Source: Bacteroidota bacterium (GTDB taxonomy: Bacteria > Bacteroidota > Bacteroidia > Bacteroidales > FEN-979). Taken from it: a stretch of DNA of 64,000 nt. The translations under genes were made by a program, and so were the position numbers. Below are positions 11,027 to 60,207 of the stretch, in pieces; position 1 is the stretch's first letter, and every line of letters starts with the position of its first letter. The notes under the pieces were generated by a model. The model ran no database searches, was not told the origin of the DNA, and saw only the letters and a list, made by a program, of their open reading frames with translations. The DNA lies in assembly GCA_026391795.1 (NCBI GenBank), contig JAPLDI010000049.1:98594-162593 (forward strand), read 5' to 3'.

Positions 11027-11034
11027 AAAATAGT

Positions 11035-11069
11035 AATTACGGATTACGAATTAAGAATTAATAATTGAG
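11035..11069. repeat. Tandem heptamers, AATTACG family (5 units: aattacg gattacg aattaag aattaat aattgag)
   Basis: Read directly from the sequence. Lies between the coxB start and the coxIV stop. Confidence 0.85.
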
Positions 11070-11123
11070 TTCATAAAGGTTATAAAGTTCATAAAGTTTT
11101 TAAAGTTCATAAAATCATAAAAT
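11070..11123. repeat. Tandem nonamers, TTCATAAAG family (6 units)
   Basis: ttcataaag gttataaag ttcataaag tttttaaag ttcataaaa tcataaaat, read directly. Confidence 0.85.
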
Positions 11124-11159
11124 GTTCTCATTCTTTGTTATCACAACTTCACCACATGT

Positions 11160-11444
11160 CTATCTGAAGATATAATCCGAGAATGTAAGAAGAATAACCG
11201 AAACATAGATCGCAAGAACCATTACCACGAGTATTCTGAGCAGGAGGTTTTCCAGCTTCAGGTGCATGAAATAGGCAAGTACGATTGCTGCCTTTGTAGA
11301 AGCCAGCAGTAACGCTATCAGTACTGTAAATGCCGTAAGGTCGAGCCAGGGGACCAGGATGGTAAGCGTTGTAAGTACCAACAACCCGATCAGAACTTTC
11401 CCGTATAGCGGATAACCTGTAATGTGTGCAGCTTCTGTTGACAT
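11160..11444 (-). CDS. Cytochrome c oxidase subunit IV-like small membrane protein
   Basis: Three hydrophobic helices. Position is between subunit III and subunit II. Start moved to the ATG (MSTEAAH) in place of the tracked TTG. Confidence 0.6.
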   Translation of the reverse strand: MSTEAAHITGYPLYGKVLIGLLVLTTLTILVPWLDLTAFTVLIALLLASTKAAIVLAYFMHLKLENLLLRILVVMVLAIYVSVILLTFSDYIFR

Positions 11445-11513
11445 ACTTTTTAACAATTACGCATTATAAATTATGATATAAACTACTCGCTCTCTTGTGA
11501 CCCAATCGCCAAT

Positions 11514-12119
11514 TTATGTTACCAGATACAGGAGCGGAAAGAGAAATATCCAGATCAGGTCAACCAGGTGCCAGTAAAGTCCACCATTCTCGAGCAGTAC
11601 ATAATGTTCATCGGTGATCAGTCCCATTCTGACTTTGACGAGGGCAACCACCAGGATAACCGCTCCGATGACTAGGTGAAGCATGTGTAACCCCGTCATA
11701 AAGAAATAGAGACTGAAGAAAAGAATGTAACCATGCCTGAGTGTCTGCATCAGTTCTGTCCCCGGATACAACGTGATGGATATTTTGTGCCCCCATTCAA
11801 AATATTTATCCACCAGGAAAATGACAGCACAAAGGAGGGTTATGCAGAGAAGAATTGTGGCCATCCGCTTATCTTTTTTCTGAACCGCCGAGATCGACAT
11901 GGCGACCGTCATACTGCTGATTAGGAGAACCACTGTATTCAAAGCCCCAATGAATGTGTTTAGCTGAAGGGAGGCCTGGTGAAAGTCATCCGGGTATCGA
12001 TGCCTCATAACGGCATAAACAAGGAATAACCCACCGAACAGCAAGATTTCGGTAAAAATAAATACCCACATTCCCAGTTTTGCGCCCACATCGTCACGTG
12101 GCATTTCTATATGATCCAT
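11514..12119 (-). CDS. coxC: Cytochrome c oxidase subunit III
   Basis: 201 aa polytopic protein. FFMTGLHMLHLVIG and GLYWHLVDLIWIFLFPLLY are typical of the subunit III C-terminus. Confidence 0.85.
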   Translation of the reverse strand: MDHIEMPRDDVGAKLGMWVFIFTEILLFGGLFLVYAVMRHRYPDDFHQASLQLNTFIGALNTVVLLISSMTVAMSISAVQKKDKRMATILLCITLLCAVIFLVDKYFEWGHKISITLYPGTELMQTLRHGYILFFSLYFFMTGLHMLHLVIGAVILVVALVKVRMGLITDEHYVLLENGGLYWHLVDLIWIFLFPLLYLVT

Positions 12120-12126
12120 CTTTTTA

Positions 12127-12161
12127 AATTACGAATTACGAAGTACGAATTACGAATATGT
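12127..12161. repeat. Tandem heptamers, AATTACG family (aattacg aattacg aagtacg aattacg aatatgt)
   Basis: Read directly. Lies between the coxA stop and the coxC start. Confidence 0.85.
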
Positions 12162-12164
12162 TAA

Positions 12165-12180
12165 CTCACCAATTCACCAG
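12165..12180. repeat. Two 8-mers of the TTCACCAG family abutting the coxA stop codon
   Basis: ctcaccaa ttcaccag, immediately followed by tta (the TAA of coxA on the minus strand). Confidence 0.7.
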
Positions 12181-13785
12181 TTAATCATAGTCATACGGCT
12201 TATCCGGTACAGCAGGTGGAGTGGCGAAATTTTCCATTGAAGGGGGCGAAGGCAGCTGCCATTCAAGGGTTTTTCCACCCCAGGGGTTGTCACCCGCTTT
12301 GGCTCCGTTTTTCCTAAATAGATTTATAACCATGATAATGAATCCGATTCCAAGAATATATCCTCCGATGGTCGAAATCTGCTGTGCCCAGGTAAACTGG
12401 GGGAGATAATCAAAATACCTTCTGGGCATTCCTTCAAGGCCAATGATGAATTGCGGGAAATAGAGAAGGTTGAACCCGATAAAAAGAAAACCCCAGGCAA
12501 TATTGGCAACCCTGAAATTGTAAAGTCGTCCGAACATCTTGGGATACCAGTAATGAACCGCACCGAGGAAAGCAAACCCGACACCTCCGAATATGATGTA
12601 ATGGAAATGGGCAACAATAAAAGAAGTATCATGAACCTGGATATCAGTTGCAAGTGCCCCCTGGACAAGTCCGGTCAATCCCCCGATGCAGAACAAAAAG
12701 ATAAAAGCGATTGCGAAGAGCAGAGGAGGTTTCAGGTCGATAGAGCCTTTGTACATGGTGGCTACCCAGTTGAAAACCTTAATAGCGCTGGGAACTGCCA
12801 CAAGGAAGGTGAGAAGTGAAAATGTCCAGATGGCTTCCTTGCTCATGCCAGAGGTGAACATATGGTGTCCCCAAACAAAATACCCGACCCCAGCTATGGC
12901 GAGGCTGGAAATTGCAATCGCTTTGTAGCCGTAAATCTGTTTCTGGCAGAAGGTAGGGATGATCTCGGTGATTACACCCATGGCTGGCAGGATCATTATG
13001 TACACTGCCGGATGTGAATAGATCCAGAACAGGTGCTGGTAAAGAACGGGATCGCCGCCAAGCGCCGGATCAAAGAATCCGATATGGAACAACCTTTCGG
13101 CGATAATCATCAATAAGGTGATACCGATAACCGGTGTTGCAAGGATCTGGATCCAGGCAGTGGCATAAATTGCCCAGGGTAATAAAGGCATTTTGAAGAA
13201 ACTCATTCCCGGCGCACGAAGGCGGTGAATCGTAACGATGAAATTGATGCCGGTCAGAATAGAGGAAAACCCAAGGATGAAAGCCCCGCTCACCGCTGCG
13301 ATCACATTGGTCTGCGTCTGCGTGCTGTAAGGCGCGTAAAACGTCCAGCCGGTATCGGGCGGGCCGTTGCCTGTAAACTGCGATACGACCACGACCGCTG
13401 CACCCAGAATATAAAGGTACCAGGCGAAAAGGTTGAGTCGTGGAAATGCGACATCATTGGCGCCTATCATAATGGGCATGACGAAGTTGCCGAAAACGAC
13501 AGTCAGTCCGGGGATCACGATCAGGAAGATCATGATCAGTCCGTGAAGCGTAAAGATCGCGTTGTAGGTTTGAGGTCCGTAGAACTGTTGCCCGGGCTTA
13601 AAAAGCTCGGTTCGCAACGTTTCCCCGAGGATGCCCCCAACGATAAAGAAAACCAGGATAGACCATAGGTAGAGGAGTCCAATCCTCTTGTGATCAGTAG
13701 TGGTAAGCCAGGCCTTAAGTCCTTTCCGCTTCCCGGTATCGGTCAGATAACTCGGTTCTTCATGAAGATCTGTGTTTCCAGTCAT
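12181..13785 (-). CDS. coxA: Cytochrome c oxidase subunit I
   Basis: 534 aa with 12 or more TM helices. Contains the heme-copper oxidase motifs WFFGHPEVY-like (LFWIYSHPAVYIMILP) and HHMFTSG. Confidence 0.95.
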   Translation of the reverse strand: MTGNTDLHEEPSYLTDTGKRKGLKAWLTTTDHKRIGLLYLWSILVFFIVGGILGETLRTELFKPGQQFYGPQTYNAIFTLHGLIMIFLIVIPGLTVVFGNFVMPIMIGANDVAFPRLNLFAWYLYILGAAVVVVSQFTGNGPPDTGWTFYAPYSTQTQTNVIAAVSGAFILGFSSILTGINFIVTIHRLRAPGMSFFKMPLLPWAIYATAWIQILATPVIGITLLMIIAERLFHIGFFDPALGGDPVLYQHLFWIYSHPAVYIMILPAMGVITEIIPTFCQKQIYGYKAIAISSLAIAGVGYFVWGHHMFTSGMSKEAIWTFSLLTFLVAVPSAIKVFNWVATMYKGSIDLKPPLLFAIAFIFLFCIGGLTGLVQGALATDIQVHDTSFIVAHFHYIIFGGVGFAFLGAVHYWYPKMFGRLYNFRVANIAWGFLFIGFNLLYFPQFIIGLEGMPRRYFDYLPQFTWAQQISTIGGYILGIGFIIMVINLFRKNGAKAGDNPWGGKTLEWQLPSPPSMENFATPPAVPDKPYDYD

Positions 13786-13801
13786 GGATTGAAAGTCTTA
13801 A

Positions 13802-14614
13802 CTATGAATTGGATGGTTTGATTGTTTCTTTTGGTTTTGTTTTTTTCCGGGATGAACGTATAAGCAGGGAGATGGACAAGACAACTACAATAAAAATGAT
13901 GATGGTTGCGATCACCTTGGTCACAGCCAGACTGTAACGTCTGCCTGCCGGGTCGTAAGTAAAGCAAAAATCCATAATCCGGTTTATGGTGGGCCTTGAG
14001 ATCCCTTTCTGTGCCTCGATCACGGCCATTTTTACATCGAACGGCAGAAAGGTCGTTCCATAAAGATAGCGGGTTATCTTTCCTTCCGGACTAAGGATCA
14101 TGATGCAACTCGGGTGGATGAAGTCGTTCCCGGCCTGGATGAATTTATATCCGACAGCATTGGTAAGCGCATGAATGTTCGCACTGTCACCCGTAAGATA
14201 GTTCCAGTACTGCCCGTTCGGCCTGCTTTTCTTGTCAAGAAAACTGTTTTTCTTGTCAAGGGCCTTTTCAGGAGTATCCAGAGGGTTGAAAGAGACACTG
14301 ATGATCTGGTATTCCTTACCCAATTGCATGTCCGTTTTTTTTACAACATTCGCTATTCCGGCAAGAAGTTGCGGGCATATCCCCGGGCAATCAAAGTAAA
14401 TCAGCGAGAGTATGGTTGGGCGCTTGATAATTTCTTTCAGGAGTACAGGCTTGTTCGTTTCATCCCTGAATGACAATCCATCCGGTATAATTCGGTCGAG
14501 GTGCTCGACGATACCTACTTCGACAGTGTCAGCAGTGTCCTGGGCCAGGGAACGCAGCGTGCCTGAAACCATGACTAAAACTGCTGTGACCAGGAAAGCT
14601 GTTTTGAAATTCAT
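13802..14614 (-). CDS. SCO1/SenC family copper chaperone
   Basis: Thioredoxin-like fold with the FDCPGICP motif. A C-terminal TM segment is present. Sits adjacent to coxA. Confidence 0.85.
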   Translation of the reverse strand: MNFKTAFLVTAVLVMVSGTLRSLAQDTADTVEVGIVEHLDRIIPDGLSFRDETNKPVLLKEIIKRPTILSLIYFDCPGICPQLLAGIANVVKKTDMQLGKEYQIISVSFNPLDTPEKALDKKNSFLDKKSRPNGQYWNYLTGDSANIHALTNAVGYKFIQAGNDFIHPSCIMILSPEGKITRYLYGTTFLPFDVKMAVIEAQKGISRPTINRIMDFCFTYDPAGRRYSLAVTKVIATIIIFIVVVLSISLLIRSSRKKTKPKETIKPSNS

Positions 14615-14649
14615 ACTGCTGAATGTTAATTATATAGTGCCTCTGATGC

Positions 14650-15057
14650 TCATGTTGCAGATTTCTCTTCCCTGTAAATTCCTGCGATCATCAGGGCACC
14701 CCCCATCAGAGCAGTATCTTTCAGCAACTCGATCAATGCCAATGTCGAAACTTTCGTATGCACCTGGAGAATGGTTACTTCGGTCGGGTCAAAAAGTGAC
14801 GGAACATGGATCGTAAGGATAAAAATGAAAAGAAGGAGTGCCAGCAAAAGACAGGATAGCTGAATGTATTTTTTTGCAATGATGGAGATGCAGGCTGCAA
14901 TCAATGCAAGTCCTGTGATAATAATAGTGTATCCCCCTCCTGGAATGAAGGTGCTGACCATTCCTGTATAATAACTTGTCATGAGAAAATGGTTCAGTCC
15001 AAGGATTCCAAATGGCAGGGCAAACAAGATTCTTCCTATGGTTGTCAGGTGTTTCAT
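14650..15057 (-). CDS. DoxX-like membrane protein
   Basis: Start moved to MKHLTTIGRILFALPFGILGLNHF (ATG at 15057). Four hydrophobic helices. Confidence 0.6.
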   Translation of the reverse strand: MKHLTTIGRILFALPFGILGLNHFLMTSYYTGMVSTFIPGGGYTIIITGLALIAACISIIAKKYIQLSCLLLALLLFIFILTIHVPSLFDPTEVTILQVHTKVSTLALIELLKDTALMGGALMIAGIYREEKSAT

Positions 15058-15068
15058 AGTTGATTTTA

Positions 15069-15977: not shown

Positions 15978-16030
15978 ATTATTCTATGTTTTCAATCACA
16001 TTCAATTCTGCATCTCTGATACGACATACT

Positions 16031-18360: not shown

Positions 18361-18384
18361 TTCATCTTCCGGGTATCATATTTG

Positions 18385-18392
18385 CAAATATA
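18385..18392 (-). promoter_or_regulatory. -7 box TATATTTG for the respiratory operon
   Basis: The reverse strand reads TATATTTG, 25 nt upstream of the ATG at 18360. It is embedded in the palindrome atatttgcaaatat. Confidence 0.45.
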
Positions 18393-18433
18393 GAAAAATA
18401 TTTATGTGTCAAAATTTAAAATCATGAACTCAG

Positions 18434-18466
18434 AAAAAAAAGCTGTCTCAAAAGGAGACAGCTTTT
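18434..18466 (-). terminator. Rho-independent terminator (9-bp perfect stem, 5-nt loop, T-run on the minus strand)
   Basis: agctgtctc-aaaag-gagacagct, flanked by A7 and T3-4. On the minus strand the stem is followed by T9. Lies downstream of the gene at 18509-20113. Confidence 0.7.
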
Positions 18467-18508
18467 AATAATCCTGCCCGGACTTCCGTCCAGTATGGGA
18501 AAGAACAA

Positions 18509-23201: not shown

Positions 23202-23229
23202 ACTTACGAATTACGAATTACGAATGATT
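23202..23229. repeat. Tandem heptamers, AATTACG family (4 units), just after the queE stop
   Basis: acttacg aattacg aattacg aatgatt. Confidence 0.8.
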
Positions 23230-23252: not shown

Positions 23253-23293
23253 CATCCAGCATCCAGTATCCAGCATCCAGCATCCAGCATCAG
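23253..23293. repeat. Tandem heptamers, CATCCAG x6 (last unit 6 nt), ending 5 nt before the ATG at 23299
   Basis: catccag catccag tatccag catccag catccag catcag, read directly. Confidence 0.9.
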
Positions 23294-23298: not shown

Positions 23299-25161
23299 AT
23301 GACACCGAAATCCATTCTGTTCCCAATTGCATTCTTCCTTTTGCTGGTTACAACATGCGTGACTGCACAGACTGCCCCGCTTTCAACGAAGTCGAAAAAG
23401 GCTGCCGCACTGTTCACGGAGGCAATCAACTTTTACGACCAGAAAGACTACATGAAAGCCATAAGGAACCTCGATCGGGCAATAAAGGAAGATTCGGCCT
23501 TTGTCGAAGCCTTTATCCTGAAAGGGGATATCTTGTCGGATCAGCAGTATCCCCATGAGGCGATCGTACAATATAAAATGGGAATTGCAGCAAACCCCGA
23601 TTATTCTCCAGTCCTTTATTATATTGTTGCCAATGTGGAGTTGATGACAGGCCGGTATGAAGATGCCCGGAGAGATTATGAAAAATTCCTTGGTTATCCT
23701 GACCAACAGAAGGAAAAACAGGCGAAAGCCCGGAAGAATATCAATTCCTGCAGCTTTGGAATATCCTCGATGGCCCATCCGGTTCCTTTTAAACCGGTAA
23801 ATCTGGGGGATAGTATCAATTCCCCATATGACGACTTTGTCAATGCCGTAACAGCAGATGAACGGCAATTGTTTCTGACCCGTAAACTTCCAAAACCACA
23901 CCCTTCTTCCAATGAATCAACTGAGTTTAACGAGGATTTTTACAAGGCGGTAAAACCCGACAGTATCTGGCACAAAGCATTAAATATCGGCCCCCCCGTC
24001 AACACCGAAGAAAATGAAGGAGCCTTGTGTATCTCGCCTGATGGAAAATATATATTTTTTGCAGCCTGCAACCGTGCAGATGGATTCGGCAGTTGTGACC
24101 TCTATTGGTCAAAACTGACTGGTAGCGACTGGTCGGCTCCCGAAAACCTGGGGCCGGCAGTAAATTCTTCATCCTGGAAAACAGAGCTGGAGCCGGATGC
24201 AACCTGGAGTATCCCCGTTAATCTCGGGGACTCTATAAATACGCGGTATGAAGAGATGGCACCGTTTATCCATCCCGATAACCGGACTTTGTATTTTTCC
24301 TCAAGAGGTCACCAGGGGATGGGTGGCTACGATCTGTATTATTCAAGGATGGATGCAGATGGAAAATGGACACTCCCGGTAGACCTGGGATATCCTATAA
24401 ATACCTATGCCGACGAGATCACCCTGGTGGTGAATGCAAAAGGGGATCTGGCCTATATTTCAAGTGACAAACTTGGTGGTAAGGGAGGAATGGACATCTA
24501 TTCCTTTAAATTATACAAAGAAGCACAGCCTGTACTGGTTACTTATTTTAGAGGAATTGTTTTTGATAAGGATACGAAAAAGCGCCTGGAAGCAAAGTTT
24601 GAACTGGTTGATCTGTCCTCTGGAAAAACCGTCTCCAGATCCTCTTCCGACCCGGTCAGCGGGGAATTCCTGCTGTCCTTGCCAACAGAGAAAGAGTATG
24701 GCTTGAGTGTTTCAAGACCGGGATATCTGTTCTATTCTGATCATTTTGAATTGCGGGGCGAAAGTTCAAAAGCCAAACCCTTTATCTACAATGTTCCACT
24801 GCAACCCATCAGGGTAGGAGAGACCGTGATCCTGAAAAATATTTTCTTTGATACCGACAAATATGACCTGAAGGAGGAATCCAGGAGTGAACTTGCAAAG
24901 CTGATGCAGTTGTTGCGAGGCAATCCCTTGATTCATATTGAGATCAGCGGGCATACTGACAATCAGGGTTCTTCCGACCACAACATGGTCCTTTCCCGTA
25001 ACAGGGCACAGGCTGTCTATGATTATCTTATCCTCAACGGGATTCCGAAAGACCGGCTGACCTATACGGGTTACGGCCTTACCCGTCCAATCGACACCAA
25101 CGATACCGAACAGGGCCGGGCAAATAACAGGAGAACAGAGTTTAAGGTAATTTCTCAGTGA
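23299..25161 (+). CDS. OmpA-family protein with TPR, TolB-like (PD40) repeats and C-terminal OmpA peptidoglycan-binding domain
   Basis: Has a signal peptide and TPR-like helices. Repeated xPxNLGxxINS...SPDG..(I/L)(F/Y)F modules. C-terminus is NIFFDTDKYDL...LSRNRAQAVYDYL...NRRTEF. Confidence 0.85.
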   Translation: MTPKSILFPIAFFLLLVTTCVTAQTAPLSTKSKKAAALFTEAINFYDQKDYMKAIRNLDRAIKEDSAFVEAFILKGDILSDQQYPHEAIVQYKMGIAANPDYSPVLYYIVANVELMTGRYEDARRDYEKFLGYPDQQKEKQAKARKNINSCSFGISSMAHPVPFKPVNLGDSINSPYDDFVNAVTADERQLFLTRKLPKPHPSSNESTEFNEDFYKAVKPDSIWHKALNIGPPVNTEENEGALCISPDGKYIFFAACNRADGFGSCDLYWSKLTGSDWSAPENLGPAVNSSSWKTELEPDATWSIPVNLGDSINTRYEEMAPFIHPDNRTLYFSSRGHQGMGGYDLYYSRMDADGKWTLPVDLGYPINTYADEITLVVNAKGDLAYISSDKLGGKGGMDIYSFKLYKEAQPVLVTYFRGIVFDKDTKKRLEAKFELVDLSSGKTVSRSSSDPVSGEFLLSLPTEKEYGLSVSRPGYLFYSDHFELRGESSKAKPFIYNVPLQPIRVGETVILKNIFFDTDKYDLKEESRSELAKLMQLLRGNPLIHIEISGHTDNQGSSDHNMVLSRNRAQAVYDYLILNGIPKDRLTYTGYGLTRPIDTNDTEQGRANNRRTEFKVISQ

Positions 25162-25173: not shown

Positions 25174-25201
25174 GAAGATCGAGAATCGAAAATCGGGCAT
25201 C
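25174..25201. repeat. Tandem heptamers, GARAATC family (4 units), after the OmpA-family stop
   Basis: gaagatc gagaatc gaaaatc gggcatc, followed by a single catccag unit at about 25210. Confidence 0.7.
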
Positions 25202-25287
25202 ACCAGAGACATCCAGCCTTATTCTATCCCCATCCTCAATCTTCCACCTTCAGATATCTTTTATTTGTAACTCTGATTCTTAATAAC

Positions 25288-25324: not shown

Positions 25325-27268
25325 ATGATAAACATAACGCTACCCGATAATTCCGTGAGGCAATATGCCGAAGGCATTACCGGAATGGAAATCGCAAAAA
25401 GCATCAGTGAAGGGCTTGCACGCAATGTGCTCTCGGTAAAGGTGAATGATGAGGTCTGGGATGCCACACGTCCGATCACCACTGATGCAAGAGTTCGGTT
25501 GCTTACCTGGAACGATGAAGAAGGCAAAGGCACATTCTGGCACTCATCTGCCCACCTCATGGCAGAAGCAGTTGAGTTTCTTTACCCCGGAGCCAAGTTT
25601 GGCATAGGCCCTCATATTGAGAGCGGATTTTACTATGATATTGATTTTGGTGATAAAGCCATCTCATCGGAGGACTTTCCGAAGATAGAAGCCAAGATGA
25701 TGGAACTGGCAAAAGCCAACCAGACATTTGTCCGGAAAGAAGTTCCGAAAGCTGATGCACTGGATTATTTTACCAGAAAACAGGATGAATACAAGATCGA
25801 ACTGATCAGGGACCTTGAAGACGGGCAGATTACTTTTTATGAATCCGGACATTTTACGGATCTATGCCGTGGGCCTCACCTTCCGGATACTTCATCCATC
25901 AAGGCCGTCAAATTGCTGAATACAGCCGGTGCATACTGGAGGGGGGATGAAACCCGCCGCCAGCTTACCCGTATCTATGGCATCACCTTCCCAAAGCAAA
26001 AGGAACTTACAGACTATCTGACTCTTCTTGAAGAGGCAAAAAAACGCGACCATCGCAAGATCGGCAGGGAAATGGAGCTTTTCACCTTCTCTCAGAGAGT
26101 CGGCCAGGGTCTCCCTTTATGGCTTCCCAAAGGTGCACTGCTAAGAGAACGCCTCGAAATGTTCCTTAAAAAAGTACAGAAGAAAGCCGGATATCAGCAG
26201 GTCATTTGCCCGCATATCGGAAATGTGGAGCTGTACAAAACATCAGGGCATTATCAGAAATACGGAGAAAGCTCTTTCCGGCCTATCACAACCCCGGTTC
26301 CTGGGGAAGAATTTTTTCTCAAACCAATGAATTGCCCTCACCATTGCGAAATTTATTCATCCAAGCCGAGATCCTATAAGGAGCTTCCTGTCCGCATCGC
26401 AGAATTCGGTACCGTTTACCGGTATGAACAGAGCGGGGAACTTCACGGACTGACCCGCGTTCGCGGATTTACACAGGATGATGCGCATATATTCTGTACT
26501 CCCGAACAGGTGAAAGACGAGTTTAAAGGTGTGATTGATATCGTCATGCTGATTTTCAAAGCACTCGACTTTAAAGATTTTATTACCCAGATATCCTTCC
26601 GCGACAAGAACAACAAAGAGAAATACATTGGAACGGACGAAAACTGGGAAAAGGCCGAACAGGCCATCCTGGAAGTGGCACAGGAACGGAACTTGAATTA
26701 TGTTGTGGTTCCCGGCGAGGCCGCATTCTATGGCCCTAAGATGGATTTCATGGTGAAAGACGCCCTCGGAAGAAAATGGCAGCTGGGAACGATTCAGGTT
26801 GATTATAATCTTCCCGATCGTTTTGAGCTCGAATACATTGGAAGCGACAACCAGAAACACCGGCCTGTAATGATTCACCGGGCACCGTTCGGTTCGATGG
26901 AACGGTTCGTGGCTGTGCTGATCGAGCATACGGCAGGACAATTTCCGCTCTGGCTTACTCCCGATCAGGTTATCATCTTGCCTATCAGTGAAAAATATCA
27001 GAATTACGCAGAAAAAGTTTTACAATTCCTGAATAATTCCGATATTCGCGCCCAAATTGACGACAGGAACGAGAAGGCAGGGAAGAAAATCAGGGATGCC
27101 GAGCTGGCAAAGATCCCTTTTATGCTGGTCGTAGGAGAGAGAGAAGAACTGGAAGGGACCGTTTCTGTCAGAAAGCATGGCCAGGGAGATCTCGGTCCGC
27201 AAAAAATGGAAGATTTTGCCCTGTTCATTCAGGATGAAGTCGCAAAAGAACTTGGAGAGATTAACTGA
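25325..27268 (+). CDS. thrS: Threonine--tRNA ligase
   Basis: 647 aa. N-terminal TGS domain. HSSAHLMA editing-domain motif. Class II motifs FRPITTP..., [26 protein letters not shown] and the anticodon-binding C-terminus. Confidence 0.95.
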
Positions 27269-27343
27269 TAATTGACAATTGATAATTGATAATTTTGGAA
27301 GTCGGAAAACAGAAATCAGAAAACAGAAGTCAACTATCTGACC
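27267..27343. repeat. Tandem heptamers GATAATT x4, then a period-7/14 block (ttggaag tcggaaa acagaaa tcagaaa acagaag tcaacta tctgacc)
   Basis: Starts inside the thrS TGA (27266-27268). Read directly. Confidence 0.85.
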
Positions 27344-27388
27344 TGCGACCCCAGGCTTCATCAGTAATAACTAAACATAGGAGAACGA

Positions 27389-27955
27389 ATTATAGCACTT
27401 CCGTTTAATAGCAATTTTAACAGGGGCGGCCGCCGACCTTTCGTAAAAAAAGAAGATCCTCACAAGATCAATGAACACATAAAAGCTTCTGTTGTTCGGG
27501 TGGTTGGAGAAAATGTTGAACCGGGTATTTACAACCTGCGTGAAGCATTGGTAATGGCAGAAACCAGAGGTCTCGACCTGGTCGAAATTTCACCTACCGC
27601 GAACCCGCCGGTTTGCAGGGTAATAGATTATAAAAAGTTCCTTTACGAACTGAAGCGGAAACAGAAGGAGATGAAGGCAAAGACGGCGAAAATCGTAGTA
27701 AAGGAAATCCGTCTGGGGCCCAATACGGATGACCATGATTTCAACTTTAAGCTGAATCATGCGATCAAATTCCTGAAGGATGGAGCCAAGGTGAAAGTGG
27801 ATGTGTTTTTTAAAGGAAGATCTATTATATATAAGGAACAGGGAGAACTGATCCTGCTGAAGTTTGCGCAGAGCATTGTGGATTATGGGAAAATTGAGCA
27901 ACTGCCGCGACTGGAAGGAAAAAGAATGATCATGATCATTGCTCCCAAGAAATAA
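27389..27955 (+). CDS. infC: Translation initiation factor IF-3, with non-canonical (ATT/ATA) start
   Basis: The tracked ORF starts at GTG 27500, but the frame is open from 27371. The upstream part encodes ...[35 protein letters not shown], a conserved IF-3 N-terminus. That stretch has no ATG, GTG or TTG. ATT at 27389 follows AGGAG (27379-27383). Confidence 0.8.
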
Positions 27956-29601: not shown

Positions 29602-29624
29602 GAGATTGTGAAAATCAATTATAA

Positions 29625-29657
29625 AAAAGAGGTAGCCGAAAGCTGCCTCTTTTTTTA
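29625..29657 (+). terminator. Rho-independent terminator between convergent genes
   Basis: agaggtagc-cgaaa-gctgcctct stem with one G-U pair, followed by T7 and preceded by A6. It could act in both directions. Confidence 0.6.
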
Positions 29658-29721
29658 TCCTTCCCTGAACCATTAATAAAATCAGATAATACAGAAGTTT
29701 TTGTTTTATCTCAGGGCTGGA

Positions 29722-42053: not shown

Positions 42054-42085
42054 TATTTTCGCTATTTCGCCAATTCACCATTTCG
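42054..42085. repeat. Four 8-mers (tattttcg ctatttcg ccaattca ccatttcg) abutting the stop codon at 42086
   Basis: Read directly. Related to the TTCACCAG family. Confidence 0.65.
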
Positions 42086-53736: not shown

Positions 53737-53749
53737 AAGAGGTAAAGAG

Positions 53750-54754: not shown

Positions 54755-55176
54755 CAGGAACCGGTTTTTGTATTGTCAGATTCATCTGTCGTCTTAACAA
54801 GTAGTTTTAGCAGATCCTTTACAGAAATGTTGAACACATCGGCATAAAGCTGCAGCGTTTCCACAGGTAATGTCTGGAAACAGGCCGCTTCAAGGTGTTT
54901 TTTTACTTTTCTCTTCCTGAACCCTGCCCGTGATGCAAGTTCGCTAAGGGTCAGATCTTCCAGGACCATAAAATAATAGATCGGACTGACTTCGCCCGAA
55001 AGTACCTTCTTTTGTAACGATTCTTCCAGGTGACGGCGTTTCAACTCGTAATCATCCAGGAAATTCTTCGTGATGTAAGAACCGGTCTGCATGGGTTCGT
55101 ATTTCCCGTCTTCCTTCTCTACGTATAGAATCACCTGCTGCTGCGGGCAATCTATGATACCATCTTTTTCTTTCAT
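54754..55176 (-). CDS. Small HTH-like protein of unknown function
   Basis: Start moved to MKEKDGII (ATG at 55176). LTLSELASRAGFRKRKVKKHL and LQLYADVFNISVKDLL resemble an XRE-type HTH. Confidence 0.45.
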   Translation of the reverse strand: MKEKDGIIDCPQQQVILYVEKEDGKYEPMQTGSYITKNFLDDYELKRRHLEESLQKKVLSGEVSPIYYFMVLEDLTLSELASRAGFRKRKVKKHLEAACFQTLPVETLQLYADVFNISVKDLLKLLVKTTDESDNTKTGS

Positions 55177-55204
55177 GGGGTGCTTCCTGATACAGAAACG
55201 GATC

Positions 55205-56395
55205 TTACTTCCGTCTTGCAAAAATAACAATGGAAACGATCATAGCCAAGATAAAAAATGCCAACAGCCGTAAAATATTCGGGAAAATAGTGACCAGCGT
55301 ACCTTCCCGGATAAAAATATCCAGGTAATTATCGATGCCCCACCGGATAGGGGAGATGAGACTGATGTACTGGATCGCTTTTGGCATTAGATAAACGGGA
55401 AGAAAAGTTCCGCTGAGTACCCCCAGGATCACGACCATCACAGAGCCGAAAAGTGCTGCTTGTCCCTGTGAACTGGCAAATGCACCCACAAGGAGTCCGA
55501 AACCGGTGGCTGCAAGGGCGGCACAAAGCGTGGCAATAATAATTACACTGAAATGCGTACTGATTTGCAGGGCAGGCATTCCGAAAAATACCGGCAAGAC
55601 CCAGATGCCCACCATCAGCATCAGGAAGAACTGGAGTGTGCAGACACCCAGGAACAGGATCACTTTTGAGGTCAAAAGAACACCAACCCTGACCGGTAAT
55701 GTCCTTAATCGTCCGAAAGAACCTTCCATCTTTTCGGTTACCATGCTCCCCGACAAGGGGATCACGATAAAGAACATGGCAAAGAGAATAAATCCGGGAA
55801 CATTGTTTTGAATGATGGAAGGCTTGATGGTCGCATTTTCTTTTGTGGCATAGATCTCCTGAACCGGCGGCATATTCCTGATGTTCGTCTCAATCAGGCC
55901 ATCGATCCCGGAGGCCATCGAAGGTGCAAGCGTTTTCAAAAGGTTTTCAATCGCAATACGGCTTTGGGTGCCTTTGATAAAGTATGTCAGTGATCCGGTT
56001 ATTGTATTTTTATAAGATGATTGAAGAGAGGGATCCACGAGAAGCCGGATGGCAGTATCCTTTGCGGCAACCACGATCCCCACAGAAAACTCACCCTCAC
56101 CGATCATTTTGCGGGCCACGGGTTCATTCACCGGTATTCCCTGCCGAAGTGAGATCAGGTGATAAAGTCCGGAACTGTCGAGGTTTTGATGCAGGATCCT
56201 TGAAAATGCCGAATGGGACTGATCGACAAAAAGAACATCTGTCTTTATCTCCTTGGATGATTTAAGGGCATTCTGCTGGGCAAGAGTTACGATCATGATA
56301 AGCAGGACAGGCATAATGAAGAGAATAGCCAGCCCTGGAATATCGCGGATAAGGATAAGGAATTCTTTCCTGAATGCGGATAGAAGTTGATGCAT
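55205..56395 (-). CDS. ABC-2 type transporter permease
   Basis: 396 aa. One N-terminal TM helix, a large loop, then 5 C-terminal TM helices, which is typical ABC-2 topology. No ATPase gene lies adjacent in the window. Confidence 0.8.
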   Translation of the reverse strand: MHQLLSAFRKEFLILIRDIPGLAILFIMPVLLIMIVTLAQQNALKSSKEIKTDVLFVDQSHSAFSRILHQNLDSSGLYHLISLRQGIPVNEPVARKMIGEGEFSVGIVVAAKDTAIRLLVDPSLQSSYKNTITGSLTYFIKGTQSRIAIENLLKTLAPSMASGIDGLIETNIRNMPPVQEIYATKENATIKPSIIQNNVPGFILFAMFFIVIPLSGSMVTEKMEGSFGRLRTLPVRVGVLLTSKVILFLGVCTLQFFLMLMVGIWVLPVFFGMPALQISTHFSVIIIATLCAALAATGFGLLVGAFASSQGQAALFGSVMVVILGVLSGTFLPVYLMPKAIQYISLISPIRWGIDNYLDIFIREGTLVTIFPNILRLLAFFILAMIVSIVIFARRK

Positions 56396-56399
56396 AGTG

Positions 56400-56407
56400 C
56401 AAAGATA
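56400..56407 (-). promoter_or_regulatory. -7 box TATCTTTG only 4 nt upstream of the ABC-2 start codon
   Basis: The reverse strand reads TATCTTTGCACT-ATG. Confidence 0.35.
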
Positions 56408-56426
56408 GGAAAAGACGGCTTTGAAA

Positions 56427-56454
56427 AATTACGAATTACAAATTACGAATTATG
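56427..56454. repeat. Tandem heptamers, AATTACG family (aattacg aattaca aattacg aattatg), in a divergent intergenic region
   Basis: Read directly. Confidence 0.8.
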
Positions 56455-56483
56455 GATTTAAAATGAAATAGAGACAGAAAAAG

Positions 56484-56491
56484 TACGTTTG
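56484..56491 (+). promoter_or_regulatory. -7 box TACGTTTG upstream of the lipoprotein gene
   Basis: Matches TAnnTTTG. It overlaps the tracked TTG start at 56489, which argues for the ATG at 56552 as the true start. Confidence 0.45.
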
Positions 56492-56551
56492 AGTAAGGTT
56501 GTAAATTCTGAAGAAATCCATGTGGATTTCAAACCTCAAAGAAGAAATAGC

Positions 56552-57811
56552 ATGACGAAATATTCCCTTTTTCTTGTATCTGTTATAGCAGTGATCATGA
56601 CTTCTCTGATTTCGTGCAAAAAAAACAAAACAATACCTGACACTTCACAAACCTTGTTTACGGTAGAGCTTGCAGATAATTTTATAAAGAAAGACCTGTA
56701 TGGATTTATCCTTGTATCTGATCCTCAGGGAAATTACCTGGGGGACACCCTGTGCCAGGCCAATGGAAGATATCCAGTTTTCCTGAAAAGTGCATACCCG
56801 GTCCCGTCACAGGTTGCAATTACGGTCGGGTACGTCGAGATAATTATGCACACGCTGACAGTTCATCTCAATACCTACACGGGGGTTGCGCCTTATGGTG
56901 AGTGGAAGATGAAGGGCAACCGGCCGGATACACTGGGAAATGCAGTAGTATCGCTTACGAACCTGCCTGTTCTTACAGGTCCTGTGATCTATTCAAATTC
57001 AGGATACACGAACATGACATTTAAGACAACGGATAAGGAACAGATGATGTATGTGTCGCCGGATGACCTTTACATAAAGATTATGACACTGACAGGCGAT
57101 AAATTCAAGATTGTTCCGGGGATCACCTTGTCAGGAAACTATTCTGTCGATATGGCCGATGCAGTTGAACCAGCGAATCATACGATTTCATTTCCGATGA
57201 TGGTCCTGGATTATGATATCTCCGTTTCGGGATATAAGGGCGCCAACCTGGAAACGTCAATTCCTTTCCTTACTGACAGGATCATCAGTGACGGGAGTCT
57301 CATCAACAAAGTGGATCTTGACTATCCGCCCTCGGTCTTCACAGGGTTTATTACGGAAATGATGATCCGCGAATCCTATACCTCTGACCTCCAATGGTTC
57401 AACCATGCTGACGGAGATATCCCGGATCAGTTCCTAAAGATTAATGCGGTCATAAATTCTGTCAGCGCCAACTCAGGACAATCCTCAATCAATGCCTCGG
57501 GTACATTTATGATGTTTGTGACCAACTGGCAATATACGGATAAAGACAACACTCTTTTTGACTGGAATATTTTCGGGCCTGAAACTTCCATGGCAATATC
57601 CCTGCCCTCACTTTCGCCAAATCTTCAAAAGTCGCTGCCGACCCTGATGGCGGATTCAATGCAATACACTAGTACTGAACTCCGTTTTTATCCCAATCTT
57701 AAGAATTACCAGGATATCTTGGGGGTGCTCTACGACAAGGATCGTAACCGTCAACCGGGAGATTTTGAGATGCGGTCTGTCAGAAAGAATGCTGTGAGCA
57801 AAAGGTATTAG
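56552..57811 (+). CDS. Hypothetical lipoprotein
   Basis: Start at MTKYSLFLVSVIAVIMTSLISC (lipobox). No family recognised. Confidence 0.55.
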   Translation: MTKYSLFLVSVIAVIMTSLISCKKNKTIPDTSQTLFTVELADNFIKKDLYGFILVSDPQGNYLGDTLCQANGRYPVFLKSAYPVPSQVAITVGYVEIIMHTLTVHLNTYTGVAPYGEWKMKGNRPDTLGNAVVSLTNLPVLTGPVIYSNSGYTNMTFKTTDKEQMMYVSPDDLYIKIMTLTGDKFKIVPGITLSGNYSVDMADAVEPANHTISFPMMVLDYDISVSGYKGANLETSIPFLTDRIISDGSLINKVDLDYPPSVFTGFITEMMIRESYTSDLQWFNHADGDIPDQFLKINAVINSVSANSGQSSINASGTFMMFVTNWQYTDKDNTLFDWNIFGPETSMAISLPSLSPNLQKSLPTLMADSMQYTSTELRFYPNLKNYQDILGVLYDKDRNRQPGDFEMRSVRKNAVSKRY

Positions 57812-57896
57812 TTGTATGAGTTGAGATTCGATTGCCTTAAAGTCATCCCGTTGATAATTGAACAATCTTTCGCCAATTTGCTATCCCGCAACTTTT

Positions 57897-58997
57897 CTAT
57901 TTAATTACCGCTTCAATAACACGGATCGGCGCGACCGTCTGGATAATCTTGTTGAGTCTTAGTCCTGCCTGATCGAAAAGAGATTCAAACTCCTTTCGCG
58001 TACGTTCTTTCCCATGTTCCATGAAGAGCATCATCTGGAGATCGATGAGTTTCCCGAATGAGGAATGATTTTTTTCATCGATTACCATCTCGAGGATCAG
58101 GATTTTTCCCCGGGCGGGGAGGACCTCAACAATATTCTTAAGGATTTTCAGGCATTCTTCATCGCTCCAATTGTGCAGGATGTTTTTAAGGATGTATGCA
58201 TCTGCTCCTGCAGGAGCTGTATCAAAAAAAGTACCTTCCATTACCTTGACTCGGTTGGCTACACCGTATTTGTTGAGGATTATTCCGGAACGGGTCAATC
58301 CTTCCGGCAGATCGAAGAGGATACCGCTCGAGCTTTTGTGCTGGTAAAGGATACTTGACAGGAGCAACCCTTCTCCGCCGCCGATATCTGCTATCACAGG
58401 ATAGTTGCTGAAGTCCATAGCACTGAGAACAGGTTCAATGGATATCTCTGACAGATTGGTCATTGACCGGTCGAACAGCTCGGATTCATGGGGATGCCCA
58501 GAAAGATAATCATAGATTTTCTGCCCGTAAACCATAGAGAAAGCAGATTTTCCGGTTTTAATCGTATGGGGGAACTCGCTGAACAGGTTCCAGTTCAGGC
58601 TTCCCAGGTGCTGCATCATTGCGAATCGGAGCGATCCTTTGCCATCGGATAGAACTCTTGAGAGGGATGTGTTTTTGTATTGTCCGGTTTTGTTTTTTTT
58701 GAAGATGCCTTCACTCGATAGGGCGCGCATCATCCGGGACAACGATCCGGGATTTGAATCTGTCCGTACAGCAAGTTGTTCAATCGTCATCGGTTCTTTC
58801 TCCAGGATGCCGGCAATATCCAGCTCTGCCGCTACGCGGATTGCGGGAAGGATCCAGAAAGCCGTGAAACGCTCATACATCACGACATTGGCTGGAAATG
58901 ATCTGCTATAAAGACGGAAAAGCCCGGAACGGAATGCATTGAGGGCTCTGATGAATCTGATGGGAGGAAGTTTCCGGATGACAATTGAATCGGCCAT
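57897..58997 (-). CDS. Class I SAM-dependent O-methyltransferase (methyltransferase-2 family with N-terminal dimerisation/wHTH domain)
   Basis: SAM motif VADIGGGEGLL. Motif YILKNILHNWSDEECLKILKN. Confidence 0.8.
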   Translation of the reverse strand: MADSIVIRKLPPIRFIRALNAFRSGLFRLYSRSFPANVVMYERFTAFWILPAIRVAAELDIAGILEKEPMTIEQLAVRTDSNPGSLSRMMRALSSEGIFKKNKTGQYKNTSLSRVLSDGKGSLRFAMMQHLGSLNWNLFSEFPHTIKTGKSAFSMVYGQKIYDYLSGHPHESELFDRSMTNLSEISIEPVLSAMDFSNYPVIADIGGGEGLLLSSILYQHKSSSGILFDLPEGLTRSGIILNKYGVANRVKVMEGTFFDTAPAGADAYILKNILHNWSDEECLKILKNIVEVLPARGKILILEMVIDEKNHSSFGKLIDLQMMLFMEHGKERTRKEFESLFDQAGLRLNKIIQTVAPIRVIEAVIK

Positions 58998-59039
58998 TGT
59001 GCAATATTTGTACTGCGAAAGTACGAATTACACCGGATA

Positions 59040-59717
59040 TTATTTAGTCCCGACGAAGCTGATGGAAGTGATGGGGTGAATCTCCCAGCAGGTATAGGAT
59101 TTCATTTTTTCATTGACAGAATTCTGTTTTCCCCTTGGCGGTGTATTTACATGGAAGGCGTCGAAAAAAAGTTGTCCCGTAATCTTAACATAGGGAGAAG
59201 TATGATTTTTATTGCCAAAACAGACTTTCTTCCTGCCTTTCAAAATGAAGTGATCAAAAAAATCGCGCACCTTCCTGCAGGAATCCTGGAGGGTAACGTT
59301 CCCTTTTATAAAAGGCGGGTAAGCAGCTTCGACGACCAGGCAGGAATCCGCCCATTCGGATGTGGTCCGGATCTGGATATGATAATCGGCATCTGCTCCT
59401 TTCGAATCCTTTTCCAGGGCTGCCAGAAGGATGTATCCTGATGTTATTACAATATCCCCCTCCTTCAGATGATGGGTTCCGATAACCTCGGAAAACCGCT
59501 GATCCTGGTATTCTTCCTGTTCTTCTTTCGTGTACGAAAGAATGGGGGAGCGAAGCCCCATTAATTCCGCAAGACTCACCTCTTTCACAGGAAGGAAATG
59601 GGTAACACTTGTCTTTACCGGCCACCGCTCTTTCCCCGGAGAAAACCCTTGTCCGCAAAGAAAACCGGCAACTGGAAGAAAGAATGTAAGTAACAGAATC
59701 AATTTTGTCTTCATCAA
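59040..59717 (-). CDS. Secreted hypothetical protein
   Basis: Signal peptide present. Motifs ERWPVKT, DADYHIQI and CWEIHPI. No family name I can support. Confidence 0.5.
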   Translation of the reverse strand: MMKTKLILLLTFFLPVAGFLCGQGFSPGKERWPVKTSVTHFLPVKEVSLAELMGLRSPILSYTKEEQEEYQDQRFSEVIGTHHLKEGDIVITSGYILLAALEKDSKGADADYHIQIRTTSEWADSCLVVEAAYPPFIKGNVTLQDSCRKVRDFFDHFILKGRKKVCFGNKNHTSPYVKITGQLFFDAFHVNTPPRGKQNSVNEKMKSYTCWEIHPITSISFVGTK

Positions 59718-59767
59718 ATCCTGGTTATCGCGGTTGAAAACAATCTGTTTACAGAGAACAGGAAGGA

Positions 59768-59802
59768 GGTATTGGGTAATGGGTATTAGGTATTATGTAT
59801 TG
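59768..59802. repeat. Tandem heptamers, GGTATTG family (5 units)
   Basis: ggtattg ggtaatg ggtatta ggtatta tgtattg. Confidence 0.85.
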
Positions 59803-59823
59803 AATCCTTGATAGAGGTCCTCG

Positions 59824-59855
59824 CCAGTTCACCAGTTCATCAAATCATCAGCTCA
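59824..59855. repeat. Four 8-mers of the TTCACCAG family abutting the stop codon at 59856
   Basis: ccagttca ccagttca tcaaatca tcagctca, followed by tta. Confidence 0.8.
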
Positions 59856-60071
59856 TTAACAATGGCGATACTTTTTCCACATGTCTTTGATCCAGTGAAA
59901 CAGGAGAGGGGGGAAGTAAAGAACAGAAAGAATCAAAGAAAGGAGGGCAAGGATAGCCAGAACCATGATCTGGCCATCACTGGGACCGCCCGTCCCGGCG
60001 AATGCTTGTCCGCATAAAAGAAGAAAGGCTATCAGGATTGATCCGGATAGAAACATCCATTTTGTCCTCAT
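59856..60071 (-). CDS. Small (71 aa) two-helix membrane protein, hypothetical
   Basis: Two hydrophobic segments. It has its own TAnnTTTG box 20 nt upstream and is flanked by matching repeat modules. Confidence 0.4.
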   Translation of the reverse strand: MRTKWMFLSGSILIAFLLLCGQAFAGTGGPSDGQIMVLAILALLSLILSVLYFPPLLFHWIKDMWKKYRHC

Positions 60072-60091
60072 GGCATCTAAATTTAAAGGAT

Positions 60092-60099
60092 CAAATATA
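60092..60099 (-). promoter_or_regulatory. -7 box TATATTTG upstream of the 71-aa ORF
   Basis: The reverse strand reads TATATTTG, 20 nt before the ATG at 60071. Confidence 0.45.
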
Positions 60100-60137
60100 A
60101 TTCATTTTCCTGAATAAGGCAATAGCAGCAAGGAGTT

Positions 60138-60172
60138 GGGAAATGGTATTGGGTATTGGATGTTGGATGCTG
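60138..60172. repeat. Tandem heptamers, GGTATTG / TTGGATG families (5 units)
   Basis: ggaaatg ggtattg ggtattg gatgttg gatgctg. The last two units are the reverse complement of the CATCCA(G/A) unit. Confidence 0.85.
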
Positions 60173-60175
60173 TTA

Positions 60176-60207
60176 CTCACCAGGTCACCAGTTCACCAGT
60201 TCACAAG
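60176..60207. repeat. Four 8-mers of the TTCACCAG family abutting the TonB-dependent receptor stop codon
   Basis: ctcaccag gtcaccag ttcaccag ttcacaag, followed by tta. Confidence 0.9.

Follow-up and report, generated by a model that had tools for sequence, protein, structure and literature searches.

Tandem arrays of heptanucleotides have been noted in the intergenic DNA of cyanobacteria since 1990, and later in a few other groups; the canonical units of the short tandemly repeated repetitive (STRR) sequences, STRR1-3, are CCCCAGT, TTGGTCA and CAACAGT. The STRR heptanucleotides of heterocystous cyanobacteria are credited, in the account that cites them, to work on Calothrix PCC 7601 (ref. 39 in PMC4692102). 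Long simple sequence repeats (LSSRs) of 5-11-nt units, with heptamers as the dominant class, were described by Mrazek in 2007, and polymerase slippage was proposed for them, as summarized in a later paper (PMC4679880). Intergenic direct repeats of the heptamer TAACTGA were reported in Beggiatoaceae, cyanobacteria and five Bacteroidetes, and in the Bacteroidetes the same spacers also contain heptamer direct repeats of other kinds; the TAACTGA arrays have 2-6 copies, are often found upstream of start codons at a distance of a few nucleotides and were proposed to act in translational regulation via a single-strand RNA-binding protein such as S1, Csp or CsrA (MacGregor 2015, PMC4679880). The heptamers GGGAATC of Xanthomonas and GGGGAYT of Nostoc are 89-93% intergenic, their arrays lie much nearer to one of the neighbouring open reading frames (ORFs) in an orientation-dependent manner, and close relatives that share the position of an array differ in its length (Rehm 2015, PMC4692102). 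Heptamers are also found near start codons in Nostoc, where deletion of the repeat altered the regulation of a reporter (bioRxiv 10.1101/2022.06.06.494920). Here we analyse tandem arrays of period 7, 8 and 9 in a 64,000-nt stretch, hereafter the window, of contig JAPLDI010000049.1 (assembly GCA_026391795.1, positions 98,594 to 162,593 of the forward strand) from an uncultured Bacteroidota lineage within the Bacteroidales. These arrays belong to a genome-wide STRR/LSSR-type intergenic population, with 2-6 copies here and up to ~23 in a relative.

A stop codon followed by an 8-mer array in coding-strand orientation is a general and orientation-specific property of these repeats. The 8-mer family of the window reads TTCACCAG on the plus strand and TAA-CTGGTGAA... 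on the coding strand after a stop. A metagenome scan with 2.25 units of this 8-mer matched at least 120 contigs; among the matches listed, to which all metagenome counts given here refer, 33 of the 46 arrays reading CTGGTGAA after a same-strand gene lie within 15 nt of its stop codon (median 7 nt), as against 3 of 31 arrays in the opposite orientation (median 81 nt; Fisher p = 4e-8). The stop codon is often the array's own TGA or its degenerate first unit, and comparable abutment to start codons is not seen in the metagenome arrays listed. Where a downstream neighbour was called, 20 of 27 stop-abutting arrays precede a co-directional gene within ~100 nt. The sampled upstream genes are diverse, mainly of housekeeping or envelope function and of Bacteroidota flavour. 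The end TGAGTT(AAAA) is found in 20 of these arrays and likewise in those of the window (GGTGAGTTAAC, GGTGAGTAAC), and several are followed by AATTACG/CGTAATT heptamers or a AACTTTATG 9-mer, which is the block order of the window. The initial annotation of the window had claimed that an 8-mer block begins right after the stop codon of five minus-strand genes. This stands for coxI, for the genes of an EEP-family protein and a TonB-type receptor and for the 71-aa membrane ORF, but not for coxIV, which is followed by two degenerate units at a 3-nt offset; the placement as such is borne out by the metagenome counts and recurs in orthologous cox spacers.

The arrays of the window were located with Tandem Repeats Finder (TRF) and by direct reading of the sequence, both of which agree with the positions annotated initially. 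On a gene map that is crude (90.5% coding, 9.5% intergenic), 17 intergenic loci with a period of 7, 8 or 9 were found against 0.95 expected and a maximum of 4 in 100 dinucleotide-preserving shuffles of the window, which is far above chance, and the unit families recur far beyond the window; in coding DNA 8 such arrays were found against 3.8 expected. Period 7 accounts for 10 of the 17 intergenic arrays, 8-mers and 9-mers also being present, and the share of bases that falls within arrays is 10.4% in intergenic and 1.4% in coding DNA. Within the 64 kb, AATTACG is dispersed over 5-6 spacers, the 8-mer family over 4-5, and GGTATTG and CATCCAG over 2-3 each. The description of the spacers as consisting largely of repeats was overstated, since the part taken up by arrays is 41-66% in six spacers and 13-29% in three others, and two (11457-11513 and 58998-59039) have degenerate copies only. 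That the periods are never multiples of three was contradicted by the 9-mer in the same list, and stop codons in all three frames are found for some units and orientations but not for the (AATTACG)n array after the queE-like gene (23204..23225), which is stop-free in every frame in this orientation.

The same arrays are found in independent assemblies. The thrS and coxIII proteins have exact matches in independently assembled contigs whose array spacers are base-for-base equal to the window, five Logan assemblies having the same arrays in the cox spacers and three having them in the spacers that flank thrS; together these come from six sequencing runs. There is no copy-number polymorphism at the consensus level in the arrays covered by other assemblies. 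Because of this identity, the arrays are neither assembly artefacts, a possibility that had been raised with the initial annotation, nor visibly phase-variable.

Between species the arrays change fast, and the layout persists. The closest public proteins come from metagenome-assembled genomes labelled Bacteroidetes or Bacteroidales; a closed 5.27-Mb chromosome (OY820914.1) has 85% identity for both ThrS and CoxI, and synteny of the thrS and cox neighbourhoods is kept in relatives. In the window, Pfam assigns SCO1, coxI, coxIII, coxIV, coxII-cytochrome c and a UbiA prenyltransferase to the minus-strand cluster 9253-14614, which, given its spacing and co-orientation, is almost certainly one operon; the array blocks at 11027-11159 and 12120-12180 thus lie between the cistrons of this cluster. 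A comparison of orthologous spacers, as advised earlier, reveals a similar cox layout in three relatives (L248, L250 and L251, the L-numbers being labels of compared loci or contigs) and none in a fourth (L249). In L248 (94% CoxI identity), the TAA is followed by ~23 units of GTGGTGAA/ATGGTGAC, ending GGTGAGTAAAAA, and then by nine CTTTACAAA 9-mers. In L250 (85% CoxI identity), coxI is followed by the 8-mers ATAGTGAG, ATAATGAG, xTAGCGAA and TTGATGAC, and coxIII by CGAAGTAG/CGAAATAG. After coxI, coxIII and coxIV, the post-stop arrays of L251 (84% CoxI identity) are TCAGAGG, CGAAAAG and the ATAGCGAA family, respectively, one of the three being an unrelated heptamer, and its ATGs are preceded by AAATCGT-type heptamers. 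In the relatives' cox operons, the stop-bearing 8-mer family follows most stops and CGTAAWT heptamers precede several ATGs; the 9-mer family of the window (11068..11123) also occurs downstream of 8-mers in L161, L199 and L248. Copy number across orthologous arrays ranges from 2 to ~23 and units differ at the same spacer. For example, the CATCCAG array ahead of the OmpA-family gene has 5.6 copies in the window, 3.4 in L125 and 2.6 in L127 and is absent in L124 and L126, and the thrS-infC spacer has TAATTGA then GAAAACA in the window, TAGTTTG then AAATCGT in L125, and CATAATT in L127. The arrays are orientation- and position-specific in placement, fast to change between species and stable in the sampled population: the layout outlives species divergence while exact units and copy numbers change.

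The heptamer AATTACG also shows orientation preferences. Among the Bacteroidota loci in the matches listed, it stands within 10 nt after a stop in 8 of 13 cases in sense and 1 of 12 in the opposite orientation, and within 50 nt before a start in 6 of 10 cases as CGUAAUU against 0 of 11; its 5' end adjoins the neighbouring gene whatever the direction in which that gene points. In the window, CGTAATT arrays precede the coxIII and coxII ATGs by 7-8 nt, and CATCCAG precedes the OmpA-family ATG by 7 nt. AATTACG is biased 14:1 to the plus strand of the window, over which the GC skew is positive throughout. Replication-strand polarity was considered and rejected, as orientation has no link to GC skew over 132 arrays in other genomes; the strand bias instead follows from the Bacteroidota rule of sense after stops and antisense before starts. 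AATTACG arrays are situated between convergent genes in 31 cases and between divergent genes in 11 among the matches listed.

The units are drawn from a privileged vocabulary that is found also in cyanobacteria, in other phyla and in phage-like contigs. A scan for (AATTACG)x3 that covered one genome per species returned at least 120 genome stretches, mostly from Nostocales and Bacteroidota. About half of the matches listed are heterocystous cyanobacteria (Nostoc, Calothrix, Anabaena, Fortiea), the Bacteroidota among them are Saprospiraceae, Chitinophaga, Flavobacterium, Algoriphagus, Pontibacter, Bacteroidales and Lentimicrobiaceae, and other phyla are represented by Ignavibacteria, Acidobacteria, Chloroflexi and Planctomycetes. 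In 890 kb of these listed loci, TRF gave 449 rows of period 7, 73 of period 8 and 80 of period 9, and mixed arrays like those of the window are frequent in the Bacteroidota loci. Viral contigs were counted as stretches with three exact tandem copies: AATTACG has 64, ~10 times as many as the composition-matched control heptamers ATATACG (6), AATACTG (7) and ATAATCG (5), and the window units TAATTGA, GGTATTG and CATCCAG have 63, 28 and 16, respectively. Judged by these counts against the controls, the unit families are common far beyond chance.

Some of the compared loci have further features. The phage-like L273/L281 (IMGVR_UViG_3300009868_000138) and L286 (IMGVR_UViG_3300020045_012626) have 5-6 separate AATTACG arrays in 10-18 kb; in L273 the AT-rich units are set in locally GC-rich flanks, and one array directly precedes a GC-rich hairpin. 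Arrays followed by their inverted complement, such as the (AATTACG)n...(CGTAATT)n pairs of some Bacteroidota loci, are seen in genome loci L013, L033, L068 and L105, in metagenome loci L135, L156, L190 and L234, and at 9845-9932 of L125. Such pairs would give long hairpins, both arms of which are tandem repeats, usually just past a gene; none is present in the window.

Post-stop and pre-start arrays differ in composition. Among 57 intergenic arrays from the window and the loci of seven relatives, those after stops (n = 15) have a G fraction of 0.28 and a purine fraction of 0.64, and those before starts (n = 17) have 0.13 and 0.50, respectively (p = 2e-4 for the G fraction). A strict rule of 8-mers after stops and 7-mers before starts was rejected, the period being 8 in 7 of 15 and 2 of 17 arrays, respectively, which is a tendency only (p = 0.049); heptamers are also found after stops. 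When folded in the transcribed orientation, ten array spacers have z-scores of -0.57 to +1.86 against shuffles, with a mean of +0.45, and spacers without arrays have a mean z of -1.40 (p = 0.016 between the two). Since they are hairpin-free and lie between cistrons, those of the cox genes included, the window arrays are not intrinsic terminators, and hairpin termination, which had been suggested as a role, is rejected for the window, where the arrays lack a stable G+C-rich stem-loop with a U tract. Three array-free spacers, at 5279-5508, 18361-18508 and 29602-29721, fold strongly (z of -4.9, -3.9 and -5.4); the last, flanked by convergent genes, resembles a bidirectional terminator, and the first (230 nt) matches no Rfam family at the gathering threshold. 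Known RNA families were also considered for the window as a whole, and an Rfam scan at gathering thresholds was empty.

The units have a conserved core and a variable linker. In 135 variant units of the 8-mer, the TGGTGA positions are kept at 81-97% and the two linker positions at 46-69%; the distribution of mismatches is non-uniform (chi-square ~120, 7 degrees of freedom), a value that is indicative only, as units within an array are not independent. The variants of relatives (TGGTGA, TAGTGA, TAGCGA and TGATGA) fit T-R-R-Y-G-A plus two free bases, and the array at 42057..42085 bridges the TGGTGA and TAGCGA variants. In variant heptamers of the AATTACG type, AATTA is kept at 78-100% and the last two bases at 19-66%. 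We note three resemblances: CTGGTG is the core of the E. coli Chi sequence (GCTGGTGG), GGUGA would be complementary to the 3' tail of 16S rRNA, and GGTG at a period of 8 would fit the G-10 Y-1 G+1 pause consensus.

We propose that the arrays are transcribed within mRNAs and may serve as RNA-level punctuation between cistrons, a mechanism to which, taken as a whole, we give slightly less than an even chance. As parts of mRNAs, the arrays would act, or at least be constrained, at the RNA level between cistrons. The TRRYGA core with its 2-nt linker (UGGUGA-NN, UAGUGA-NN, UAGCGA-NN), lying in sense at the stop codon, would place UGA or UAG in every frame. The G-poor, AU-rich heptamers just upstream of the next start (CGUAAUU/CGUAAAU, CAUCCAG, CAAUACC) would perhaps keep a Shine-Dalgarno-independent initiation region unstructured, and a conserved core with a variable linker would permit multi-site recognition by an oligomeric single-strand-binding factor. 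RNA-binding-protein sites, one of the roles suggested initially, are thus possible and gain mild support from this pattern of conservation. As to origin, we infer that the arrays are formed and remodelled by slipped-strand expansion and contraction and by duplication of blocks. In its widest form the proposal would amount to a punctuation code for polycistronic mRNAs in Bacteroidota, and possibly in other lineages and phages, with UGGUGA-NN (TRRYGA-NN) at the stop and G-poor, AU-rich heptamers just before the next start; in this form it seems to us rather unlikely. If true, dedicated oligomeric RNA-binding factors or the ribosome would read the code, which, where there is no Shine-Dalgarno pairing, would determine the fidelity of termination, the release or re-initiation of ribosomes and the stoichiometry of cistrons. 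The orientation-specific places of the unit families, a layout that outlives species divergence and the recurrence of the units across phyla and in phage-like contigs together turn a vague enrichment in spacers into testable hypotheses about cis-elements after stops and before starts in bacteria without Shine-Dalgarno initiation.

Several observations weigh against a role in mRNA. Stops in mRNA sense are present in ~60% of arrays, the same after stops as before starts, and a read-through trap, which had been put forward earlier, consequently fails as a general role. The lower structure of array spacers is weakly different from shuffles (one-sample p = 0.10), the contrast between core and linker may be inflated because variant units in one array are non-independent, and the low G content ahead of starts could result from a passive filter and not from a function of the arrays. 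In cyanobacteria, stop abutment is reversed (CGTAATT in 18 of 34 cases and AATTACG in 4 of 36, among the matches listed), which makes a single RNA-level role for AATTACG hard to fit. The arrays are also dispensable, as L249 (86% CoxI identity) has none in its cox spacers and L124 and L126 are array-free at the queE, OmpA-family and thrS spacers. They may instead be neutral by-products of slippage which selection clears from coding sequence, promoters and initiation regions and which deletion bias pushes to gene boundaries, the common vocabulary consisting of the units that slip and persist most easily. We regard this as a serious possibility, though an unlikely one. Array-free close relatives, the turnover of units and copy numbers at orthologous positions, stop content that is not position-specific and the excess of convergent over divergent AATTACG sites all agree with neutrality, as does the one-sided decay of arrays, the right flank matching the unit at 4.3/7 positions and the left flank at 2.9/7; Mrazek's polymerase-slippage idea for heptamers, in the form in which it is relayed by PMC4679880 and PMC4692102, fits as well. 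However, a passive filter would not easily make the listed 8-mer arrays abut stops in 72% of cases in one orientation and in 10% in the other, and neutrality leaves unexplained the non-uniform conservation within units. It also sits uneasily with the family-level cox layout persisting at 84-94% CoxI identity, the ~10-fold excess of AATTACG over composition-matched heptamers and the AT-rich AATTACG arrays in GC-rich contigs such as L273. Should the arrays be neutral after all, they would reveal striking sequence-specific, polar minisatellite dynamics in bacteria and a practical cause of assembly breaks.

Punctuation at the level of transcription, by pausing, Rho-dependent termination or anti-termination, or insulation of units, seems to us improbable. 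It would account for arrays directly after stops and for the listed AATTACG arrays being more often convergent than divergent, it could draw on the inverted pairs that would form long hairpins after genes elsewhere (L013, L033, L068, L105, L135, L156) and on the array of L273 directly preceding a GC-rich hairpin, and G-poor, C-containing arrays resemble Rho-loading RNA in composition by our own reckoning. The window arrays, however, are hairpin-free and, at 15-55 nt, below the typical length of a Rho-loading site; some are inside the tight co-directional cox cluster, where termination would be harmful, and most listed stop-abutting 8-mer arrays precede a co-directional gene, as noted above. 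Still less probable is a DNA-level binding platform for a nucleoid-associated or regulatory protein reading the AATTA or TGGTGA cores. A conserved core with a variable linker would suit such a protein, the 5' end of the listed Bacteroidota AATTACG arrays adjoins genes of either direction in keeping with the like rule for G-rich heptamers (PMC4692102), and deletion of a Nostoc heptamer altered reporter regulation (bioRxiv 10.1101/2022.06.06.494920); yet periods of 7 and 8 bp do not match the phase of the DNA helix, the 8-mer rule depends on which strand of the upstream gene is the sense strand and not on the boundary alone, and orientation has no link to GC skew. Nor is a candidate DNA-binding protein known to us. 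Phase-variable contingency loci, assembly artefacts, and fragments of MITEs (miniature inverted-repeat transposable elements) or repetitive extragenic palindromic (REP) elements are extremely improbable and largely refuted already. Independent short-read Logan contigs (L253, L254 and L256) do break within the coxIV-coxII 9-mer array, the dispersed arrays evidently fragmenting short-read assemblies of this lineage, and the units are dispersed across the genome. Against these explanations, the arrays that other assemblies cover are equal in copy number, the genes on either side have housekeeping functions (cox, thrS, queE-like, uvrB) and are not surface or virulence genes, genomes of isolates (Chitinophaga, Flavobacterium, Algoriphagus, Nostoc) contain the same units, and the arrays have no shared flanks, terminal inverted repeats or larger dispersed element of the kind expected of MITE/REP or a larger mobile element. 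The 13-mers common to at least three spacers are array units only, and one AT-rich palindrome recurs twice.

Table 1. Tandem arrays in the intergenic spacers of the window, with strand and gene setting
Array	Position	Strand	Reading and setting
AATTACG heptamer array, ~4.6 copies	11035..11066	-	mRNA sense CGUAAUU; degenerates rightward on the plus strand; ends 8 nt upstream of the coxII-cytochrome c start (11026)
9-mer array, ~6 copies	11068..11123	-	middle of the coxIV-coxII spacer; plus strand AGTTCATAA; mRNA sense AACUUUAUG, AUGs mutually in frame
Degenerate 8-mer pair, weak	11138..11159	-	TCACAACT/TCACCACA on the plus strand; ends 3 nt from the coxIV stop (TAG, 11160-11162)
AATTACG heptamer array, 4.4 copies	12127..12157	-	mRNA sense CGUAAUU; 7 nt upstream of the coxIII ATG (12119)
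8-mer block	12165..12180	-	mRNA sense CUGGUGAA UUGGUGAG, then UUAAC; first base directly after the coxI TAA (12181-12183)
TTACGAA (AATTACG family) x3.1	23204..23225	+	begins 8 nt past the queE-like TAA (23195)
CATCCAG x5.6	23253..23291	+	ends 7 nt ahead of the TPR/PD40/OmpA gene ATG (23299)
GARAATC x3, then one TCACCAG and one CATCCAG unit	25174..25216	+	begins 12 nt past the OmpA-family TGA
TAATTGA/TGATAAT x4.7	27262..27294	+	contains the thrS stop TGA (27266-27268)
GAAAACA/GAAATCA array (period 7, or 14 x2)	27305..27332	+	thrS-infC spacer
8-mer array	42057..42085	-	mRNA sense (C)GAAAUGG UGAAUUGG CGAAAUAG CGAAAAUA; first base directly after the EEP-family TAA (42086)
AATTACG x3.7	56427..56452	unstranded	divergent spacer; 31 nt from the minus-strand ABC-2 gene start, 36 nt from the plus-strand gene start
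AATTACG-family remnant, ~1.5 copies (AAGTACGAATTAC)	59019..59033	-	42-nt spacer between two minus-strand genes
GGTATTG x5	59768..59802	-	mRNA sense CAAUACC, G-free
8-mer array	59825..59856	-	mRNA sense UGAGCUGA UGAUUUGA UGAACUGG UGAACUGG; adjoins the TAA of the 71-aa membrane ORF
GGTATTG x2, then GGATGTT GGATGCT	60145..60175	-	latter two are the reverse complement of the CATCCAG family
8-mer array x4	60177..60209	-	mRNA sense CUUGUGAA CUGGUGAA CUGGUGAC CUGGUGAG, then UAAC; first base directly after the TonB-type receptor TAA (60208-60210)

Apart from the cox cluster, the array-flanked genes include the queE-like gene, the TPR/PD40/OmpA gene, thrS, uvrB and an ABC-2 transporter gene. In the coxIV-coxII spacer (11027-11123, minus strand), the frame of the (AACUUUAUG)n array in the mRNA is open up to a UAA ~24 nt ahead of the coxII start, and it could be a candidate small upstream ORF. 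In L249, the coxIII and coxII calls (5603-7170) are fragmented into pieces of 72, 114 and 123 aa, and these could reflect either assembly indels or real operon decay. The TPR/PD40/OmpA gene (23299-25161) has, in Logan assembly SRR25046533 (L002 916-995), an extra 81 nt, an in-frame length, at window position ~24173 relative to the window and other assemblies; strains have probably gained or lost a repeat unit here, in the PD40 region. Downstream of the units at 25174..25216, a sequence is kept in relatives (ACCTTTGCACCCCTAAATTTTCAGGA), in which TACCTTTG may be a TAnnTTTG-type promoter element. In the thrS-infC spacer (~27379-27500), an AGGAG(G)A box followed by ATAGCACTTCCG is kept in the window and its relatives (L124-L127); infC is called from 27500, and its IF3_N profile match begins only at profile position 17. 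The start of infC may therefore be a non-AUG codon preceded by a Shine-Dalgarno-like box, which would be unusual for Bacteroidota.

Compared with the systems described so far, the arrays of the window are of the STRR/LSSR type, a known but poorly understood kind of bacterial repeat. The analogy with the STRR sequences, drawn in the initial annotation, proves stronger than was claimed: both consist of few-copy tandem heptamers dispersed over many non-coding spacers, with a few families dominating per genome, and (AATTACG)n itself forms arrays in many genomes of Nostocales, including Nostoc, Calothrix and Anabaena. The canonical units CCCCAGT, TTGGTCA and CAACAGT have zero tandem copies in the window. 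Unlike STRR sequences, the arrays of the window are hosted by a member of the Bacteroidota and not by a heterocystous cyanobacterium, involve 8-mer and 9-mer families, and have a fixed place and orientation relative to stops and starts. They agree with the long simple sequence repeats of Mrazek in unit length, in excess over chance, in being mainly intergenic and in having heptamers as the commonest class. Contingency repeats share with them tandem short units able to slip, but the window arrays are length-invariant in independent assemblies, have housekeeping flanks and lie outside ORFs and core promoters. In Bacillus, TRAP and HutP bind (G/U)AG or NAG triplets with short variable spacers and read them as ring-shaped oligomers, HutP with a period of 7. 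A short core at a fixed period, a variable linker and location on the mRNA sense strand recall these targets as a mechanistic analogy and not as membership; the window arrays differ in being dispersed over many unrelated genes and not confined to one regulon, and we know of no cognate binding protein for them.

The supposition in the initial annotation that Bacteroidota have no described equivalent is incorrect given the heptamers of five Bacteroidetes (MacGregor 2015, PMC4679880); our literature search found no Bacteroidota-specific description beyond that one and no paper with the exact tandem strings of the window. As in the TAACTGA system, a privileged heptamer spans phyla, has 2-6 intergenic copies and lies close upstream of starts. 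Tandem TAACTGA is not present in the window, where the nearest unit is TAATTGA at 27262; the window differs in having several families per spacer in recurrent order, and that study makes no mention of the post-stop 8-mer module (PMC4679880). A positional rule of this kind is not without precedent either, as heptamers abut gene boundaries in Xanthomonas and Nostoc (Rehm 2015, PMC4692102). Those repeats are G-rich and quadruplex-forming and their rule ignores ORF orientation, whereas the window units are AT-rich or of the TGGTGA type, tandem GGGAATC is absent from the window, and the 8-mer rule is sense-strand specific after the stop. Thus, relative to the known systems, the sense-specific post-stop 8-mer module, the order of several families within spacers and the breadth of AATTACG appear to be new.

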